IMG/VR virus record: IMGVR_UViG_2563366960_000002
DNA: 64,000 nucleotides
Source: a virus
Lineage: Duplodnaviria; Heunggongvirae; Uroviricota; Caudoviricetes
Direction: 5' to 3' (one strand)
This document shows positions 16,299 to 51,486 of the stretch, in pieces (the stretch's first letter is position 1; the number at the start of each line of letters is the position of its first letter). The position numbers were made by a program, and so were the translations under genes. Below the pieces are notes generated by a model. That model did no database searches, was not told where the DNA came from, and saw nothing but the letters and a program-made list of their open reading frames with translations.

Positions 16299-17330
16299 CT
16301 AATCGCCATCTTCCAGCAGGCGTACCATTGCCCCCGTTTCACTATCCAGGTTACGGATATAGTTCATGACAATATTCACGTTGGTCCAGCCACCAGCTTG
16401 CATGATCTCCGGTATTGAAACTCCGGCGCGGGCCATATCTCGCGCGGCTCCGACACGGGCACTGTGTCCAGACCAGGCCAGGTATCTCTGACCAGAGTCA
16501 TCCTTAGCGCCGTAAATCAATCGATGAGTTGCTTCAAAAATCCCTTCCAGGGCGCGAGTTGATAGCTGGCTGGTGGCAGATGGCGCGGCAACACCATTTT
16601 TTCTGACACGGCAAAACAAGTAGTTATTCGGATCATCAGCCACACCAGAGACAGAAATCCATCGCTCGACCAGTTTAGTTACCCCCAGGCTAAGTGCCTT
16701 CTCTACACCTGCGGTGCTAACCAGCGTTTTCGTTCTGCCAATATGGATTAACATTCTCCCACCGTCAGTACGTGAGATATCTTTAACCCTGATCCTGGCA
16801 ATTTCGGCTATACGTAACAGGGTGTTATAAGCAATCCCCAGAAATGCCAGATTACGTATATCCTGGCAGCGATCGCTATTTTCCATGAGTGAACGAACCT
16901 GGTCGAAATCAGTGCGTTCGAACGCCAGTGCCTGTTTTGCACGTTCACCGGCATCAACGTTTTCTTTTCGGATCCGTCGCATGACCAGTGAAACAGCATT
17001 ACTGTCACTTGGTCGTGGCAGCCCGGACCGACGATGAAGCATGTTTAGCTGGCCCAAATGTTGCTGGATAGTTTTTACTGCCAGACCGCGCGCCTGAAGA
17101 TATAGAAGATAATCGCGAACATCTTCAGGTTCTGCGGGAAACCATTTCCGGTTATTCAACTTGCACCATGCCGCCCACGACCGGCAAACGGACAGAAGCA
17201 TTTTCCAGGTATGCTCAGAAAACGCCTGGCGATCCCTGAACATGTCCATCAGATTCTTGCGAACCTCATCACTCGTTGCATCGACCGGTAATGCAGGCAA
17301 ATTTTGGTGTACGGTCAGTAAATTGGACAT
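16299..17330 (-). CDS. cre: Cre site-specific tyrosine recombinase
   Basis: 343 aa; sequence recognised as P1 Cre (MSNLLTVHQNLPALPVDATSDEVRKNLMDMFRDRQAFSEHTWK...); loxP lies 420 bp upstream. Confidence 0.98.
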   Translation of the reverse strand: MSNLLTVHQNLPALPVDATSDEVRKNLMDMFRDRQAFSEHTWKMLLSVCRSWAAWCKLNNRKWFPAEPEDVRDYLLYLQARGLAVKTIQQHLGQLNMLHRRSGLPRPSDSNAVSLVMRRIRKENVDAGERAKQALAFERTDFDQVRSLMENSDRCQDIRNLAFLGIAYNTLLRIAEIARIRVKDISRTDGGRMLIHIGRTKTLVSTAGVEKALSLGVTKLVERWISVSGVADDPNNYLFCRVRKNGVAAPSATSQLSTRALEGIFEATHRLIYGAKDDSGQRYLAWSGHSARVGAARDMARAGVSIPEIMQAGGWTNVNIVMNYIRNLDSETGAMVRLLEDGD

Positions 17331-17337
17331 TTAACAC

Positions 17338-17559
17338 TCAGATAATGGTTTTAAGTAAAGTGTACAGGATCGGCTCTGCCTTTACCTGTTTATGGTTCTC
17401 GTCATAGAAACGCCAGCGACCGCGCGTGCGTTCTATTTTCTCTTCACCGCGAGATAATGACAGTTGGTAACTATCACGCTCAAACCCTTTTGCCCGCCAG
17501 TAACCACGGTTTTTCTCAAGCTCAAGATGAGTGGACACTTTAGCAGCTGAATATCCCAT
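17338..17559 (-). CDS. 73-aa ORF between loxP and cre
   Basis: ATG with strong GAGGTG Shine-Dalgarno; stop 8 nt before the cre ATG; basic protein, no domain recognised. Confidence 0.45.
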   Translation of the reverse strand: MGYSAAKVSTHLELEKNRGYWRAKGFERDSYQLSLSRGEEKIERTRGRWRFYDENHKQVKAEPILYTLLKTII

Positions 17560-17656: not shown

Positions 17657-17729
17657 GATCAAATGATCAAGTGATCACTATTTGACCTGATAAGGTATTG
17701 AACTGTATGGATTTACAGGTAAATTGATC
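17657..17729. promoter_or_regulatory. GATC (Dam) cluster in the cre promoter region
   Basis: Four GATC sites, three within 20 bp (GATCAAATGATCAAGTGATCAC); P1 cre promoters are known to be Dam-sensitive. Confidence 0.4.
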
Positions 17730-17748: not shown

Positions 17749-17782
17749 ATAACTTCGTATAATGTATGCTATACGAAGTTAT
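17749..17782. other. loxP: loxP recombination site
   Basis: Exact ATAACTTCGTATA-ATGTATGC-TATACGAAGTTAT. Confidence 0.98.
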
Positions 17783-18163: not shown

Positions 18164-18373
18164 ATGGCTTTCATTCCACCAACCATCGACGACGTTAGAC
18201 ATTGCTCTAACGCTTTATCTGTAGACCCCGCCGAAACCGACGCTGCCCGCGCCATTGCTGAACACTACTCAAAGATATCCAATCAGGAGTACCGCATCAC
18301 CCAAGACGACCTGGATGATCTCACTGACACAATCGAATATCTCATGGCCACTAACCAGCCAGACTCACAATAA
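18164..18373 (+). CDS. coi: Coi, C1 inactivator
   Basis: 69 aa; GAGG Shine-Dalgarno; directly upstream of c1 as in P1 immC. Confidence 0.85.
   Translation: MAFIPPTIDDVRHCSNALSVDPAETDAARAIAEHYSKISNQEYRITQDDLDDLTDTIEYLMATNQPDSQ
18201..18217 (+). promoter_or_regulatory. C1 operator-like site inside coi
   Basis: ATTGCTCTAACGCTTTA: the 5' half matches the operator consensus. Confidence 0.45.
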
Positions 18374-18483: not shown

Positions 18484-19335
18484 ATGATAAATTATGTCTA
18501 CGGCGAACAACTGTACCAGGAGTTCGTCAGCTTCAGGGATCTCTTTCTAAAAAAAGCTGTTGCACGCGCCCAACACGTTGATGCCGCCAGCGACGGTCGT
18601 CCTGTTCGCCCGGTTGTCGTTCTGCCGTTCAAAGAAACGGACAGCATTCAGGCTGAAATTGATAAATGGACTTTAATGGCGCGGGAACTGGAACAGTACC
18701 CAGACCTCAATATCCCAAAGACTATTTTATATCCAGTGCCTAACATCCTTCGCGGTGTGCGTAAGGTTACAACTTATCAGACAGAAGCTGTGAACAGCGT
18801 CAACATGACCGCTGGCCGCATTATTCATCTGATTGATAAGGACATTCGCATCCAGAAAAGCGCGGGGATCAATGAGCACAGTGCGAAATACATAGAGAAC
18901 CTGGAAGCAACAAAAGAGCTAATGAAGCAGTACCCGGAGGATGAAAAATTCCGTATGCGTGTACACGGCTTTAGCGAAACAATGCTGCGCGTCCATTACA
19001 TTTCCAGTAGCCCTAACTACAATGATGGTAAATCAGTTAGTTACCATGTGCCGCTGTGTGGTGTGTTTATCTGCGATGAAACTCTCCGTGATGGAATCAT
19101 CATCAACGGTGAATTCGAGAAAGCAAAATTTAGCCTTTATGACTCTATAGAACCGATCATCTGCGACCGCTGGCCGCAGGCAAAAATATATCGCCTGGCA
19201 GATATTGAAAATGTAAAAAAACAAATTGCCATCACTCGCGAAGAGAAAAAGGTCAAATCAGCCGCATCAGTTACGCGCAGCCGTAAAACTAAGAAGGGGC
19301 AGCCAGTAAACGACAACCCCGAAAGCGCGCAATAG
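18484..19335 (+). CDS. c1: C1 repressor of lytic functions
   Basis: 283 aa; N-terminus MINYVYGEQLYQEFVSFRDLFLKKAVARAQHVD recognised as P1 C1; GGAGGA Shine-Dalgarno. Confidence 0.97.
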   Translation: MINYVYGEQLYQEFVSFRDLFLKKAVARAQHVDAASDGRPVRPVVVLPFKETDSIQAEIDKWTLMARELEQYPDLNIPKTILYPVPNILRGVRKVTTYQTEAVNSVNMTAGRIIHLIDKDIRIQKSAGINEHSAKYIENLEATKELMKQYPEDEKFRMRVHGFSETMLRVHYISSSPNYNDGKSVSYHVPLCGVFICDETLRDGIIINGEFEKAKFSLYDSIEPIICDRWPQAKIYRLADIENVKKQIAITREEKKVKSAASVTRSRKTKKGQPVNDNPESAQ

Positions 19336-23918: not shown

Positions 23919-24299
23919 CTACTCCGCAGAACCATACAATCTACGTAACGTGTCGGCGACAGAAGATACAGATATCTCTCCGGTCGCAGCCCCTACGGTA
24001 AGGTCTGCCAGTTCTGGTGAATCAAATACCTGCACCCCGTTACGGCGTAGAAATAGCAGCGCACTGTTTAGCGCGGTACGCTTATTGGCATCATTGAATA
24101 TATGCCCTCTCGCAGTAGCCACCAGGTAGGTGGCGGAGACTTCGAAAAGGTCGGTGATATCTTCGTAGGCAACTCTGGCCTGAACTCTCCCGATAATGGC
24201 CTCTGCCCTACCCGGATCTGACATTCCCGGCAGGCCGCCGTAGCGGTTTATATTCGCATCATGAAGCGCAATAAGTTCTTCCGGTGATATATGCCTCAT
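23919..24299 (-). CDS. doc: Doc toxin (Fic-fold kinase) of the phd-doc addiction module
   Basis: 126 aa; Fic-like motif [11 protein letters not shown]; ATG overlaps the phd stop. Confidence 0.95.
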
Positions 24300-24520
24300 T
24301 ATCGGTTAACCAGTTCCTTGTTGGTGGAGTCCAGGGTGTCAAACAGGGATGCAAATTCAGCATCCAGCGCCGCTTTTTTGTAGGCTTCGAAAGTAGCCTT
24401 GCTGACAATTACTGCTGGCTCACGGCCTCTGCGAGTGATTTCAACCTCTTCCCCGGCTTCAACATTGTTGAGCACTTCAGAAAGGTTGCCGCGCGCGGTA
24501 CGGAAGTTAATGGATTGCAT
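24299..24520 (-). CDS. phd: Phd antitoxin
   Basis: 73 aa from ATG 24520 ([49 protein letters not shown]...), recognised as P1 Phd. Confidence 0.95.
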
Positions 24521-24592
24521 AAACACCTCGTGTACTCGTTATGTGTACACAATTATAAACCTCACAGGCATAAAGCACCAGCCCTTTGCAGC

Positions 24593-24982
24593 TTAAATGA
24601 CCGGACAATCATCAAATTCCCCACTTCGGGCATCATTGATGACATGAGTGATCACACCAAAAACAGCATTACTTCCCGTGCATCCATCGTCATCTACTGG
24701 TAACGCCTCTTTCTTCCCGGTGCTTAAATCCTCCAGGTGCTGGCGCGGATACTTTCGGTATCTCTTTATGCGATATTCACCCTCCATAGCGCACACAAGC
24801 AGCGAACCATCAACTGGAGTAAGCGAAGAATCAACCACCAGCAAAGCACCCTGCAATATTCCCTCACGGTGATGGCTATCAGCTGCCCGCATGAAGTAGG
24901 TTGCTGATGGATGCCTGATTAGTTGCTGATCAAGAGAAATTCGGCTTTCAACATAATCCGCCGCAGGAGAAGGGAAGCCCAT
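24593..24982 (-). CDS. humD: HumD, UmuD' homolog
   Basis: 129 aa; S24/UmuD-like sequence lacking the N-terminal cleaved segment; LexA box 22 bp upstream. Confidence 0.9.
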   Translation of the reverse strand: MGFPSPAADYVESRISLDQQLIRHPSATYFMRAADSHHREGILQGALLVVDSSLTPVDGSLLVCAMEGEYRIKRYRKYPRQHLEDLSTGKKEALPVDDDGCTGSNAVFGVITHVINDARSGEFDDCPVI

Positions 24983-25003
24983 AGCGTTTTCACCTCAATA
25001 ATG

Positions 25004-25019
25004 CTGTTCATTTATACAG
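25004..25019. promoter_or_regulatory. LexA (SOS) box
   Basis: CTGT-TCATTTAT-ACAG (CTGT-N8-ACAG) between humD and the divergent 25156 gene. Confidence 0.7.
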
Positions 25020-25155
25020 TATACATTAAAGAGACACCTTTGGTGCAAACGCGTTATGGATCTTAACCCCTCTGATGACTTTGTGCGCTTTGCTACTATT
25101 CATCACCGCTGGATCAGCGTAACCTCGTTACTAATCAATTAATAAGGAATTAGCC

Positions 25156-25740
25156 ATGCCTGCCCGCATTCCTCTCGATCCTGCATTGCCCAAAAATTTT
25201 GACTGCACTCCTAACGAGAAACGCTCCAAAGCCCAGCTGGACGCCTGGTGGGACCATCCCTATGGAGTTACAGAACCTGACGGGAAAATTCTTGTTTATT
25301 GTCTGAATGGTGGCGCGTGGGACCGTCCATCCGTGCTTGGTTTTGTAGATAACTATGATGAAGCCTGTGAACTTGCCGAAAGACAGCAAGCTAGATGGGT
25401 CAAAACACGGTCTAAACCGTCATTCATGTTTTCAAAAGAACCGCCATTTATACTGGCGAGGATGCCGCAGCGACCGGATCATCAACAAGAAATTGTTGCT
25501 GAATTTTCCTCAAGGGATGAGATGAATCTCTTCTCATTAAAGCAGGAAGAAAGGGATCGCGTCGAAGTGTCTCCAACTCTCGACCACAACCGGATGAACC
25601 TGGCCCAGCTCGCCTGGTACAGCAAAGAATTAGAGATGTCTATTGCCCGGCTTGAAAACGAAAAAGCCGCTATCCAAGTCCAGCACGAAGTAGTTCTGAA
25701 CCGGATTAGAGAAATGCAAAACGATAACAGGGGATTTTGA
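25156..25740 (+). CDS. Hypothetical protein (first gene of a two-gene module divergent from humD)
   Basis: 194 aa; AAGGA Shine-Dalgarno; C-terminal coiled-coil; no domain recognised. Confidence 0.6.
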   Translation: MPARIPLDPALPKNFDCTPNEKRSKAQLDAWWDHPYGVTEPDGKILVYCLNGGAWDRPSVLGFVDNYDEACELAERQQARWVKTRSKPSFMFSKEPPFILARMPQRPDHQQEIVAEFSSRDEMNLFSLKQEERDRVEVSPTLDHNRMNLAQLAWYSKELEMSIARLENEKAAIQVQHEVVLNRIREMQNDNRGF

Positions 25741-26097
25741 ATGGCTAAAATCGAGTACCATCGCGATCGCGGTAATTACCTGGAAATATACGATCATGAA
25801 TCTCTTAACGATATCAACGATGCGTTATATGAATACTGTGAAAAAACGAGCATCACAGATGCACCTGATGCATTTGTCGAGCTGCCGGTATATCTCCGCG
25901 ACATCTATGCAATACGAACACCGCCCGTATCGGTGATTCACATTGGCTATGTCCGCCTGTCCATCGAAGAAGATGAAGATCGTTATATCGTGCGCCACTA
26001 TACATTGGACAGAAAAGAACTTCCTAATGAATGGAACATGAGTAATTTCTACAACGGTGAATATGGCTTAAAATCCGCTAATAATTTACGGTCATAA
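25741..26097 (+). CDS. Hypothetical protein (second gene of the module)
   Basis: 118 aa; ATG directly after the stop of the preceding ORF; no domain recognised. Confidence 0.6.
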   Translation: MAKIEYHRDRGNYLEIYDHESLNDINDALYEYCEKTSITDAPDAFVELPVYLRDIYAIRTPPVSVIHIGYVRLSIEEDEDRYIVRHYTLDRKELPNEWNMSNFYNGEYGLKSANNLRS

Positions 26098-26959
26098 TCT
26101 ATACAGGCATGTATAACAACAATGAGCCTATTAGCTGTCAACAACGTTATTTTCTCAAATAAGAAAAAGCAGAAAACAAATTGTTTAAGGTCACAAATTG
26201 TGGCCTTGATGGAGGAGGGAGGCTTATTGGCTATGGCTAAAAATCAAATTAGACACTTCATGTTGCTGTAGCTCATCAAGATCCGAGGCCACAAAACCTT
26301 TTCCGAAAAACTTCACAAGTAACTCACTAGCCGCATCATTGTCACCTATTACACGAAAGTCATACGGCAACGTCGCAAGCTGACGATGTAATCCTGCTGA
26401 GAAAGTCGAATCTAACAGCGCCCAGAATTCCCACCGCAGGATAATACTCGCCTCTTAATACTGTATATATGTTGTTACGATATGTTTTTCTGTCTCTAAA
26501 AAAAGATGTTAATAGAATGCTAACCATTGAAGGGGATAAAAATATACAATTCCAACAAACGTTATTTTTAACAATTTTTTTCTTTGCGTTGACTTTCCCG
26601 GACACCTTGTCTGACCGAAGGTGCGCGAAAGCCACTTTTTCCTTCCTGAGTTATCCACAAAGTTATGCACTTGCAAGAGGGCCATTTTCTACATATTGTG
26701 GTGGCTAACAGATGAAATGAATGTAGATTAATTGAAGATAAGGAGAAAATTTGAGATGCAATCATGACGTTAATAGATAGGGTCTGCATTACAGACCCCA
26801 CCCGCATCAAGGAATTAGCCGTTCCCTGATGTTTTTCCGAAAACATGTGCCGTAAGCTCACGTTAACGACTTTCATTCACCGAATCCAACTATATAGGGG
26901 TTGGTTTTCTACGTCAACGTGAGCAAGTGCACCTTTACATTTGACAAGGAACCACCTGA

Positions 26960-27097
26960 ATGAACGCTTTTTTTCAGTTCCTGAGTGCATTTTTAGATGC
27001 GCCTATTATTAGCCAGATTCTGGCTATTATCCTCATCATCGTTTTGATTTTGCTTTTAAGGTCAGTAAAAAATGGAATTATGCACTGGCTTACTTAA
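26960..27097 (+). CDS. 45-aa hydrophobic peptide in an AT-rich intergenic island
   Basis: MNAFFQFLSAFLDAPIISQILAIILIIVLILLLRSVKNGIMHWLT: one TM helix plus basic anchor; AAGGA 9 nt upstream; hairpin AATGTTTC-agt-GAAACATT right after the stop. Confidence 0.35.
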   Translation: MNAFFQFLSAFLDAPIISQILAIILIIVLILLLRSVKNGIMHWLT

Positions 27098-27172
27098 TGT
27101 TTCAGTGAAACATTAAAATCTCCTTGATGTGGAAACAATCATTTTCTGTATGTGCTGGTGGGCACCTGTAGT

Positions 27173-27535
27173 TCAGCTTTCGTTGGCATTTAACTTCGTC
27201 TTTGCTTTCTCCACCAGCAACTTCCAGATGCCTATTTCATTAGCAGCCGCCTTGATGGCGGCATAAAAAGCATCTTGCTGATCGTAACGCTGGATCTGTT
27301 TTTTCAGTTTTGCCTCCACCAATTTAATTTCATTACGTGCTTTCTGAAGCCGCATCACCGCCCGGTTACGTCTGTTCTTGTATAGCGTGTTAATCTCTGA
27401 CAATTGCTTTAATTTACCAGCCTGACTGCGGATTATCGCCTCCCTGGCTTCTGCCGTGCGTCTCATCTGATCTCTTAAGAGTTCACCGTTTTCGATAATT
27501 CTTTCAAGGTGTTTGATGTGATCTGCAACTCTCAT
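27173..27535 (-). CDS. Hypothetical coiled-coil protein (last gene of an early operon)
   Basis: 120 aa; start overlaps the upstream gene stop. Confidence 0.55.
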   Translation of the reverse strand: MRVADHIKHLERIIENGELLRDQMRRTAEAREAIIRSQAGKLKQLSEINTLYKNRRNRAVMRLQKARNEIKLVEAKLKKQIQRYDQQDAFYAAIKAAANEIGIWKLLVEKAKTKLNANES

Positions 27536-50827: not shown

Positions 50828-51486
50828 ACTTGCCGGGTACGTCTCCGGCGAGGGCTTCCACCTCCGTATGCTTTTCGGCGCACCGCGCCCTGGCTGCAAT
50901 TCGGTAACAGGGGATGCACAACCCTGGCTTCCAACGTGATTAGCGCCTTCAGCATGACGGGATATACCCGTAGTAGGACGTTATCTTCAAATTGCTAAAA
51001 GCAATTGCTGTTACGCAGAATGAAAAAGGACGTAACAGGTAAGGACGCTGACCAAAAAGATGGCCCCTTCTCGCTCATCTGGTTAATCGAACCAGCGCCC
51101 TTACCTGTTGTGCCTCCCCGTTCCCTAATACACAGACGGGGACACTCTGCGGTCGATTTTTTGACGGGGGACGACTCATACCCCGTGGCGTCTGGCTTCT
51201 TAGGCCGCTACCATCATCAGATCATCGTTTGCATTTACTTTAATGGTCAGTTTCTAAACCGCCGCAAAGTCGCTAACCATGACGAAAACCCTGAAAAAAA
51301 CGCCCACCCGAAGATGGGCAAACTGGAAGCTCGTAACGCACTTCGGTGTTGCCACTTAGGCGTATGGTCAACCTGGCAACTCGGCGTCATGATGGGGAAG
51401 GAGTCACTACCCCGCCATACTTGCCGCCGCGCCTGTCGCGGCTAACAGCTAAATCGCTCTATAAATCACGATTCATTGATGCGATA

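Follow-up and report, generated by a model that had tools for sequence, protein, structure and literature searches.

A P7-type allele of the humD / LexA-box / lxr region in a P1/P7-like phage-plasmid

Genes and features of the region

The DNA analysed here is a stretch of 64,000 nucleotides from a virus of the Caudoviricetes (IMG/VR record IMGVR_UViG_2563366960_000002), hereafter called the window, which shares about 97% nucleotide identity with phage P7 and P1-like phages in megablast. In the part considered below, doc, phd and humD run leftward, a LexA operator follows, and lxr, which is upf94.2 of P7, and upf93.6 run rightward. The features are as follows, with the basis of each in brackets.

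24593–24982, minus strand: humD, UmuD′-like, 129 aa (open reading frame list; Pfam, PHROG, P1/P7 annotation)
25002–25021: LexA operator (SOS box) TGCTGTTCATTTATACAGTA (matrix score; annotated LexA site in P1 and P7)
25018–25048, minus strand: best predicted humD promoter, −35 TTGCAC at 25048–25043, 19-nt spacer, −10 TATACT at 25023–25018 (consensus scoring)
25072–25099, plus strand: best predicted lxr promoter, −35 CTGATG, 16-nt spacer, extended −10 TG-C-TACTAT at 25091–25099 (weak score, 6.9)
25156–25740, plus strand: lxr (P7 upf94.2), 194 aa (P1 Lxr similarity, PHROG 6164, P7 annotation)
25156–25545, plus strand: N-terminal conserved domain of Lxr, here called LxrN, aa ~1–130 (alignment, AlphaFold2 model, profile search)
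25600–25731, plus strand: C-terminal long helix or coiled coil of Lxr, aa 149–192 (P1-like clade only)
25724–26551: P7-type replacement segment, consisting of the last lxr codons, upf93.6 and 455 bp of AT-rich DNA (blastn against the P1/P7 loci)
25741–26097, plus strand: upf93.6, 118 aa (P7 Upf93.6 similarity, PHROG 5797, P7 annotation)

The leftward gene next to the operator is readily identified: its product matches Pfam Peptidase_S24 (5.7e-9) and PHROG 811, 'UmuD-like' (7e-55), and is 99% identical to HumD of P7 and P1, whose records both annotate humD. Across an intergenic region of 173 bp lie the two open reading frames of 194 and 118 aa which a preliminary description of this DNA had pointed out as a divergent, adjacent pair, and such they are: the TGA stop of lxr directly abuts the ATG of upf93.6 (GGGGATTTTGAATGGCT), and a Shine-Dalgarno-like sequence stands before each gene. 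With lxr divergent from humD, the LexA site between them and phd-doc adjoining, the arrangement agrees with P1 and P7 in both gene order and spacing. An Rfam scan of 24400–27200 gave no match, and no direct repeats or iterons were found in the region.

What are the two rightward genes? The preliminary description had seen no recognisable domain in either product and no likeness to the theta subunit, and supposed that the pair might be cargo different from the lxr and hot of P1. Its first two points stand: for Lxr and Upf93.6 nothing above threshold was obtained in Pfam or NCBIfam, and nothing at all in PADLOC or in PDB sequence searches, whether a single sequence or a profile was the query; their PHROG matches carry no function label; neither matches the theta family PF06440 in a Pfam search, and when P1 Hot was compared with the entire window by tblastn, nothing fell below E = 0.98. 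The idea of different cargo has to be given up. The 194-aa product is the orthologue of P1 Lxr (AAQ14072; 174/189 residues identical, or 92%, E 3e-137 in BLASTP), corresponds to P7 upf94.2 and matches PHROG 6164 over residues 1–194 (2.8e-132), and the 118-aa product is that of P7 upf93.6 (AAQ07573; 99% identity in tblastn to the P7 locus; PHROG 5797, 3.8e-77). That both proteins could be ordinary Lxr and Hot orthologues, the outcome which the same description had set against its own proposal, is therefore right for the first and wrong for the second.

Comparison with the two reference phages places the locus closer. P1 has the same gene in the same position and orientation, with a LexA box that is one base off and with the phd-doc-humD neighbours, whereas the last ~5 codons of lxr and everything downstream differ: in P1 lxr is followed by hot on the opposite strand, in the window by upf93.6 on the same strand. 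P7 has essentially the same locus as the window, with both genes (upf94.2 and upf93.6; AAQ07574 and AAQ07573) and an annotated LexA site, but bears IS903 about 265 bp downstream of upf93.6, which the window lacks. When the window is compared by blastn with the P1 and P7 loci, the boundaries of the cassette fall at 25723 and 26552, and the P7-type segment, poorer in GC (0.42 and 0.39) than the window (0.485), stands in place of 306 bp of P1 that carry hot. The hot gene, which encodes a homologue of DNA polymerase III theta (PF06440), takes the equivalent slot beside lxr in P1 and in D6-like elements, but it has no sequence relationship to either open reading frame of the window and in P1 is served by a late promoter. 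In short, upf93.6 is a known alternative cassette replacing hot of P1, and the whole locus is the humD / LexA-box / lxr region known from P1, in its P7-type form, carried by a P1/P7-like phage-plasmid. It is thus already known, its annotation in P1 and P7 dating back two decades, and as a feature of the window it is of little weight, since it sits in an already described variable region of P1-like phage-plasmids.

The LexA operator and the promoters around it

The consensus LexA box that had been reported between humD and the pair is real. Its core (CTGTTCATTTATACAG, 25004–25019) has the form CTGT-N8-ACAG, and the 20-mer agrees with the E. coli consensus TACTGTATATATATACAGTA at 16/20 positions. 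On a position weight matrix derived from 20 SOS boxes of E. coli, it scores 22.2 bits, compared with a median of 20.5 for the training sites; on the same matrix, the site at 17701 (18.9 bits) is the only other one in the window above 12 bits, and shuffled windows yield 0.017 sites of at least 18 bits. The bare CTGT-N8-ACAG pattern is seen three times in the window, against 0.61 expected. An arm of the box has an inverted match to a LexA half-site at 26457–26470, where no full box is formed. The box of P1 differs from that of the window by a single base (TACTGT in P1, TGCTGT in the window), and the P1 record describes it as 'LexA binding site in the regulatory region of lxr and humD'.

To which of the two genes does this operator belong? 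Being upstream of both, it is separated by 22 nt from the humD ATG (24982, minus strand) and by 137 nt from the lxr ATG (25156). The −10 of the best predicted humD promoter overlaps it, and consensus scoring gives an equivalent prediction in the D6-like element L069; the P1 record instead sets its predicted PhumD inside lxr. The best predicted lxr promoter is found about 75 nt downstream of the box. It is to be noted that every promoter call here is a weak consensus match, with a 19-nt spacer in the humD candidate, and that a generic promoter scan returned none in the humD-lxr intergenic region.

Among relatives, the box adjoins humD in 6/6 humD contexts examined (P1, P7, the D6-like L069/70, RCS47 and D6), and its distance to humD is equal in P1, P7, L069/70, RCS47 and D6. 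RCS47 and D6 have kept the box together with humD while lxr is absent, and the megablast similarity of RCS47, D6 and 813R1 to the window stops at about 25030, just beyond the box. The reverse situation also exists, lxr being found without humD in L072–76. No box was seen upstream of lxr in four humD-less contexts, including L072/73/76, L071/74 and L075, in which humD is lost and phd is adjacent to lxr, nor upstream of any of the LxrN-only plasmid genes examined. L077 is an exception, with a perfect LexA box 107 nt upstream of its lxr-upf93.6; this box is 21 nt from another leftward gene, and a −35 TTGACA and a −10 CATACT overlap it. Outside the P1/P7/D6 group, the upstream regions of lxr in distant relatives are unalignable, and no conserved promoter was obtained from them.

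Because the box follows humD across relatives and overlaps the best predicted humD −10, the operator most likely belongs primarily to humD, and not to lxr-upf93.6. The humD gene has what marks a LexA-regulon member at the sequence level, namely a 22.2-bit box, close to its ATG, lying over the predicted −10 and conserved with the gene. In this it resembles umuDC-type SOS operators, with a high-scoring CTGT-N8-ACAG box just upstream of a UmuD′-like gene and over its predicted −10, except that here two genes running the other way share the intergenic region. LexA bound to the box would cover the −10 and the start region of the leftward promoter, so that the UmuD′-like HumD would be made during the SOS response only. 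McLenigan et al. are said to have described in 1999 that humD encodes the pre-cleaved UmuD′ form, in a phage without a umuC partner.

Can the same box also serve the rightward genes? It might be possible that a single operator works in both directions and represses humD as well as lxr-upf93.6, both being cargo induced by DNA damage, and we regard this as a reading with some claim to attention but clearly not a favoured one. The annotators of P1 assigned the box to both genes, and the gene name stands for 'LexA regulated'; the shared intergenic region is short, and a weaker rightward candidate promoter (−35 TTCACC at 24989) has its −10 TATACA at 25013–25018, inside the box; moreover, L077 provides a second, independent box before lxr-upf93.6. 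Against these points, the box is missing from the humD-less lxr contexts and LxrN-only plasmid genes mentioned above, it is retained with humD where lxr is absent, and it stands 137 nt before the lxr ATG, with the best rightward promoter about 75 nt downstream of the box. Literature searches found neither a paper on LexA-dependent lxr expression or on LexA-dependent transcription of P1 nor ChIP or expression data. It is therefore doubtful that LexA controls lxr-upf93.6, since the box tracks humD and the best lxr promoter lies about 75 nt beyond it. The DNA-damage induction of the pair that the preliminary description proposed had been drawn from proximity, whereas humD is the gene to which both the comparative data and the best predicted promoters assign the box. 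The name 'LexA-regulated function' likewise appears to come from adjacency alone, and thus lxr should not count as an SOS gene without a test.

With the operator assigned primarily to humD, how would the rightward genes be transcribed? Given their abutting stop and start codons, and the order lxr-upf93.6 that is kept in L076 and L077 at 54–63% identity, lxr and upf93.6 would form one operon of two genes, probably transcribed from its own weak promoter beyond the box. Since lxr has a predicted promoter of its own, any SOS induction of the pair would be a by-product of the shared intergenic region.

The Lxr and Upf93.6 families

LxrN is a conserved, Trp-rich domain of ~125 aa, with the invariant motifs WWD-P (WWDHP) and CLNGG-WDR (CLNGGAWDR), and it is acidic across the family (median pI 4.9). 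In the AlphaFold2 model of Lxr (pLDDT 90) its topology is b-b-b-a-b-b-a, and the C-terminal coiled coil, which is specific to the P1-like clade, would dimerise. Upf93.6 is also acidic (pI 4.8), and its structure model is poor (pLDDT 59). A profile search with LxrN collected 476 cluster representatives, and the domain is present in 890/72,556 plasmid records (~1%), 564 of the 890 being conjugative; in all, it is spread over conjugative plasmids, ICEs and phage-plasmids across Proteobacteria. Many distant members bear a basic N-terminal helical extension of ~60 aa, and the only fused domains suggested in longer relatives are weak Glyoxalase_8 N-terminal motif matches and one PaaA2 motif.

Members of the LxrN family are named 'DNA-binding protein' by NCBI and UniRef. 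Following this name, Lxr could be a dimeric DNA-binding regulator, in which an AP2/ERF-like three-stranded sheet and a helix contact DNA and the coiled coil dimerises, controlling phage or host genes with Upf93.6 as a co-factor. The b-b-b-a core of the model and the basic extension of distant members would suit such a protein. So would the only Foldseek match of sizeable probability, the GCC-box domain of AtERF1 (1gcc; prob 0.84, target TM 0.60, E 0.4). However, alignment of the family profile to AP2 sequences with hhalign gave a probability of 3%, Pfam has no AP2 match, the median pI of the family is unlike that of AP2 and integrase arm-binding domains, and an NCBIfam search found no model backing the database name. 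The AP2 lead was rejected on the profile-profile alignment and on charge. A DNA-binding role, as implied by the name, is accordingly less likely than the binding of a protein, and the dimeric regulator in particular is improbable.

The neighbours of LxrN genes were counted at 52 species-level loci: TraG/VirD4-like genes occur at 25/52, ArdC at 8/52, and UmuC within 5 kb at 7/52. Many contexts are not obviously leading regions, as in the Klebsiella IncFIB/IncHI1B plasmid L078. Homologues of Upf93.6 with 54–58% identity come after lxr in L076 and L077, and another relative lies within a DUF932-ssb-TrfB-like operon near stbABC. The two genes are also found apart, lxr with hot or a 70-aa gene and Upf93.6 after unrelated genes; a 320-aa gene before a Upf93.6 homologue in Salmonella plasmids was considered as a possible Lxr relative and rejected as unrelated. 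Neighbours of the ssb, ardC and umuDC type are seen at a minority of the loci with LxrN and in a single context of a Upf93.6-like gene, and other contexts differ.

The vicinity of umu genes raises the question of whether the Lxr family modulates translesion synthesis of plasmids and phages by acting on UmuD′2C or RecA*, which would explain the adjacency to humD and umuDC. LxrN genes are near umuD or umuDC homologues in three unrelated types of element: head to head with humD in P1-like elements, tail to tail with umuC in the sphingomonad plasmids L040–44, and 4 kb from umuDC on the large enterobacterial plasmids L018–20 and L079. Yet UmuC is within 5 kb at only 7/52 loci, most LxrN genes have no umu neighbour, and lxr and humD occur without each other, in L072–76 and in RCS47 and D6, respectively. 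In addition, the anti-defence islands found in the leading regions of plasmids are reported to have umu operons frequently at their borders (PMC11541004), so the co-location may reflect a shared island only. We consider such a modulator quite improbable. The position beside phd-doc invites another thought, that lxr-upf93.6 is a toxin-antitoxin or abortive-infection pair, since two small abutting genes lie in a plasmid maintenance neighbourhood and one distant LxrN protein has the PaaA2 antitoxin motif; but PADLOC, Pfam and NCBIfam returned nothing, the two genes occur separately in relatives, both products are acidic, and CRISPRi knock-down of lxr is tolerated, the gene being non-essential (PMC10695390). 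This idea has very little in its favour and is the least credible of those considered.

Possible roles of Lxr and Upf93.6

What, then, might the two proteins do? Lxr would consist of a very conserved acidic alpha/beta domain and a dimerising coiled coil, with Upf93.6 as a second small acidic protein. Both families would recur in accessory or establishment regions of conjugative plasmids and ICEs, beside traG, ardC, umuDC, ssb, korA-like genes and nucleases, and neither lxr nor upf93.6 would be required when P1 grows lytically. Searches of the literature turned up no functional study of lxr or of upf93.6/upf94.2. A parallel is offered by the anti-defence or establishment islands of plasmid leading regions, which umuDC often borders (Samuel et al., 2024; PMC11541004): the relatives of LxrN and Upf93.6 are small, acidic, uncharacterised proteins, and in conjugative elements their neighbours include genes of the ardC, ssb, korA-like, nuclease, PAPS-reductase-like and umuDC kinds. 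P1, in contrast, is a phage-plasmid and has no conjugative leading region. From charge, conservation and neighbourhood, it is a tentative guess that Lxr and Upf93.6 bind a conserved protein of the host or of a competitor, as a factor for establishment, for anti-defence or for modulation of DNA metabolism. Fold and profile comparisons matched neither protein to a characterised inhibitor, and there are no solved relatives.

Taken together, we lean slightly towards a joint reading of this P7-type locus in which the operator is owned primarily by humD, lxr and upf93.6 make up an operon with its own promoter, and, more tentatively, their products are acidic proteins that bind another protein. A bolder version, to which we attach low confidence, is that LxrN is an inhibitor of a new kind, directed at a conserved host function such as a defence system, RecA/PolV or another factor of DNA metabolism, and that in P1-like phages it gained the coiled coil as well as a partner, Upf93.6, the latter taken from the same pool of plasmid establishment genes. 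Should Lxr turn out to act against defence or to modulate the SOS response, the known establishment genes of plasmids and phages would gain a widespread family.

The locus and its counterparts in P1 and P7

Reading of open reading frames (ORFs) in the window gives the following arrangement around humD:

23919-24299, minus strand, doc
24299-24526, minus strand, phd
24593-24982, minus strand, humD
173 bp, intergenic region between humD and the 194-aa ORF
25156-25740, plus strand, 194-aa ORF (lxr)
25741-26097, plus strand, 118-aa ORF (upf93.6), its ATG directly after the TGA of the 194-aa ORF

The preliminary description supposed that the two rightward ORFs might be cargo different from the lxr and hot genes of P1. 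When 24500-26300 was compared with phage records by megablast, P7, SJ46 and several isolates named 'P1' matched over the full length with 97% identity, while reference P1 matched only the first 1191 nt of the query. The P7 record names the ORFs upf94.2 and upf93.6 and marks a 'LexA' protein-binding site in the gap that separates upf94.2 from humD; the P1 record has the first of them as lxr, a 'LexA regulated function', and lists a 'LexA binding site in the regulatory region of lxr and humD'. The locus is already known, being annotated in both phages. With 92% identity to its P1 counterpart, the 194-aa protein is Lxr itself, and the 118-aa one corresponds to Upf93.6 of P7 (99% identity), a known alternative cassette; the idea of different cargo is to be dropped. 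That neither protein is theta-like was right, and no homologue of Hot/theta is encoded anywhere in the window. Of the two, the first protein is an ordinary Lxr orthologue, and the second is Upf93.6, not Hot.

In pairwise blastn, homology to P1 ends within the last few codons of lxr (25723) and restarts at 26552; at the differing segment P1 has 306 bp with hot (a homologue of DNA polymerase III theta, PF06440) on the opposite strand, whereas the window has 828 bp with upf93.6 and an AT-rich spacer. The sole difference from P7 at the locus is IS903, which is absent from the window. Two P7 blast segments overlap by 9 nt at about 26353-26361, the length of the target-site duplication in P7; this spot, interrupted by IS903 in reference P7, is unoccupied in the window. 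The stretch from pap/pmgT to lxr/humD is a recurrent variable region of P1-like phage-plasmids (PMC6906374; PMC9603915), and lxr was found by CRISPRi to be non-essential in P1 lytic growth (PMC10695390). Literature searches brought up no work on the function of lxr, upf94.2 or upf93.6. On the side beyond doc, P1 and P7 have pdcB and lpa, while a D6-like plasmid (L070, 1-1528) has genes for a dUTPase, a Tad2-like protein (PF11195, anti-Thoeris family) and a 258-aa protein; because of this gene content, the lxr/humD/doc neighbourhood is regarded as a hot spot for cargo and anti-defence genes in P1-like elements.

The order lxr, upf93.6 is repeated in two more P1-like elements (L076 and L077), where the proteins are 54-63% identical and short gaps take the place of the abutting stop and start. 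Since the order recurs, the translationally adjacent pair of the preliminary description is a real, moderately conserved operon. The two genes need not occur together: what follows lxr is hot, read from the other strand, in P1 and D6-like elements, and a 70-aa gene in the Salmonella element L072, and Upf93.6 homologues of Salmonella plasmids lie downstream of unrelated 81-aa and 320-aa genes. In 35-kb MOBF/MPF_T conjugative plasmids (L081, 3262-5342), a relative of Upf93.6 (38% identity, E 1e-13) is encoded by the last gene of an operon in the order DUF932, ssb, TrfB/KorA-like, Upf93.6-like, a few kb from stbABC and a SprT-like gene, a typical establishment-region setting.

The LexA box between humD and lxr

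The motif CTGTTCATTTATACAG lies at 25004-25019, exactly as first described, and the 20-mer around it, TGCTGTTCATTTATACAGTA (25002-25021), agrees with the E. coli LexA consensus at 16/20 positions. The window has three CTGT-N8-ACAG matches, with 0.61 expected. On an approximate weight matrix of 20 E. coli SOS boxes, the box scores 22.2 bits, above the training median; the single other window site above 12 bits is at 17701 (18.9 bits), and shuffled windows hold 0.017 sites of at least 18 bits. It is confirmed that this LexA-type box is no chance match.

Whose operator is it? Contexts of lxr and humD were gathered from relatives and compared for presence of the box.

Contexts of humD and lxr in relatives
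P1, P7, D6-like plasmids L069/70: humD present; lxr present; box present, 22 nt from the humD ATG and 153-155 nt from the lxr ATG
Phages RCS47, D6: humD present; lxr absent; box present, position unchanged (TACTGTTTATTCATACAGTA)
E. albertii P1-like plasmid L075: humD absent; lxr present; box absent
Salmonella P1-like elements L072/73/76: humD absent; lxr present; box absent
Enterobacter elements L071/74: humD absent; lxr present; box absent
Plasmid genes with the Lxr N-domain only: humD absent; box absent
P1-like element L077: humD absent, unrelated 84-aa gene instead; lxr present; perfect box, 21 nt from the 84-aa gene and 107 nt from lxr

In RCS47 and D6 hot follows directly beyond the box, and the megablast matches of these two phages and of 813R1 to the window stop at about 25030, just past the box; in L075 phd abuts the lxr upstream region. 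The single exception, a box without humD, is L077, where a strong leftward promoter is predicted (-35 TTGACA, 17-nt spacer, -10 CATACT overlapping the box).

Promoter scoring was consensus-based with approximate matrices, and a generic promoter scan found none in the humD/lxr intergenic region. The best leftward (humD) prediction has its -10 TATACT at 25023-25018, on the edge of the box, and the P1 annotators' predicted PhumD is far upstream, inside lxr. Taken together, these sequence comparisons suggest that the box acts as the humD operator, which fits with SOS control of UmuD-family genes, known to be SOS-controlled. With moderate confidence, LexA would occlude the humD promoter and so repress humD, and lxr-upf93.6 would form a separate operon. 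Might the box serve lxr-upf93.6 as well, as a bidirectional SOS operator? The P1 record assigns the site to both lxr and humD, and a weaker rightward candidate has its -10 inside the box; however, the best predicted rightward promoter, with an extended -10 TGCTACTAT at 25091-25099, is about 75 nt beyond it. LexA control of the predicted lxr-upf93.6 operon is conceivable but lacks support, and the label 'LexA-regulated' given to lxr is probably unwarranted, while control of humD stays the preferred reading.

Other LexA-like sites

The second strong box of the window, AACTGTATGGATTTACAGGT (17701-17720, 18.9 bits), is 29 nt from loxP (17749-17782), between cra-cre and coi-c1:

16299-17559, minus strand, cra/cre
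18164-18373, plus strand, coi
18484-19335, plus strand, c1

Its counterpart in P1 is an annotated LexA site (nt 46-65) that overlaps promoter P2coi and is presumed to link SOS and prophage induction. The third CTGT-N8-ACAG match, CTGTCGCGGCTAACAG (51433-51448), has a GC-rich spacer, scores below 8 bits on the LexA matrix and is most likely a chance match. In the AT-rich, P7-specific spacer that follows upf93.6, an isolated LexA half-site, TACTGTATATAT (26457-26470), matches the right arm of the humD box in inverted orientation; it has no second half-site, scores below 8 bits, and may be a remnant of another SOS-controlled cassette. P1-like elements also carry an uncharacterised family of 84-88 aa genes with no Pfam match (L077 2518-2812; L072 5050-5351). 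The start of each is preceded, at a distance of 16-21 nt, by a LexA box that is perfect or nearly so (27.1 and 23.6 bits). The L077 member takes the place of humD, divergent from lxr-upf93.6; the window has no homologue of the family.

Lxr, Upf93.6 and their relatives

Searches of Pfam, NCBIfam, PADLOC and PDB sequences gave no match for either protein, bearing out the earlier statement that neither has recognisable domains. Homologues of Lxr are either full-length (about 190 aa) in enterobacterial P1-like elements, or, in many cases, proteins of 130-150 aa similar to residues 1 to about 125 only. This N-terminal domain (LxrN), with invariant motifs including WWD-P and CLNGG-WDR, is about 50% identical between the E. 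coli phage and plasmids of Xanthomonas, Pseudomonas or alphaproteobacteria. An exhaustive profile search gave 476 cluster representatives, many with a basic helical N-terminal extension of about 60 aa or a C-terminal one of 150 aa, in which no informative domain was found. In the confident AlphaFold2 model of Lxr (pLDDT 90), the chain folds into a b-b-b-a-b-b-a domain and continues as a 44-residue helix (149-192). Upf93.6 is acidic (pI 4.8) and of a small family (18 clusters; 186 plasmid records); its model is poor (pLDDT 59) and the fold search gave no interpretable match.

Is Lxr a DNA-binding regulator, as the database name 'DNA-binding protein' of family members would have it? Foldseek gave nothing significant, its sole high-probability match being the AP2/ERF GCC-box domain (prob 0.84, E 0.4). 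An AP2-like nature appears unlikely: aligned with AP2 sequences by hhalign, the family profile gave 3% probability, and LxrN is acidic family-wide (median pI 4.9), the opposite of a sheet-type DNA binder. Therefore, no support for the name could be reproduced.

By tblastn, 890 plasmid records among 72,556 contain LxrN, and 564 of the 890 are classed as conjugative. Within 5 kb of LxrN at 52 species-level genome loci, there were TraG/VirD4-like coupling protein (25/52), ArdC (8/52) and UmuC (7/52), besides SNase-type nucleases, VirB11 and PAPS-reductase-like genes. Pseudomonas/Agrobacterium-type plasmids (L003-L007, 4786-6040) have a conserved operon of a 67-aa gene, LxrN (135 aa) and a serine resolvase, whose start overlaps the LxrN stop; in Klebsiella grimontii (L017) a homologue of the 67-aa gene is 3 kb from an lxr-like gene. 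Klebsiella phage-plasmids have LxrN among recA, gp32 and 5'-3' exonuclease genes; sphingomonad plasmids have it tail to tail with umuDC, and in large Citrobacter, Serratia and Kluyvera plasmids umuDC is 4 kb away.

It is to be noted that LxrN is found beside UmuD-family genes in three unrelated element types, which would favour Lxr as a modulator of PolV/RecA. However, umu operons reportedly flag the borders of anti-defence islands in plasmid leading regions (PMC11541004), so membership of one island accounts for the adjacency no less well than functional coupling. A toxin-antitoxin pair is another, unlikely reading of lxr-upf93.6. We would rather suppose, tentatively, that the small acidic proteins Lxr, perhaps dimerised by its predicted coiled coil, and Upf93.6 might bind a conserved target, either a host protein or one encoded by a competing element, and that they might act in establishment, anti-defence or DNA metabolism. 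The interest that remains is in the doubtful 'LexA-regulated' label of lxr and in the LxrN family, which is widespread and uncharacterised.
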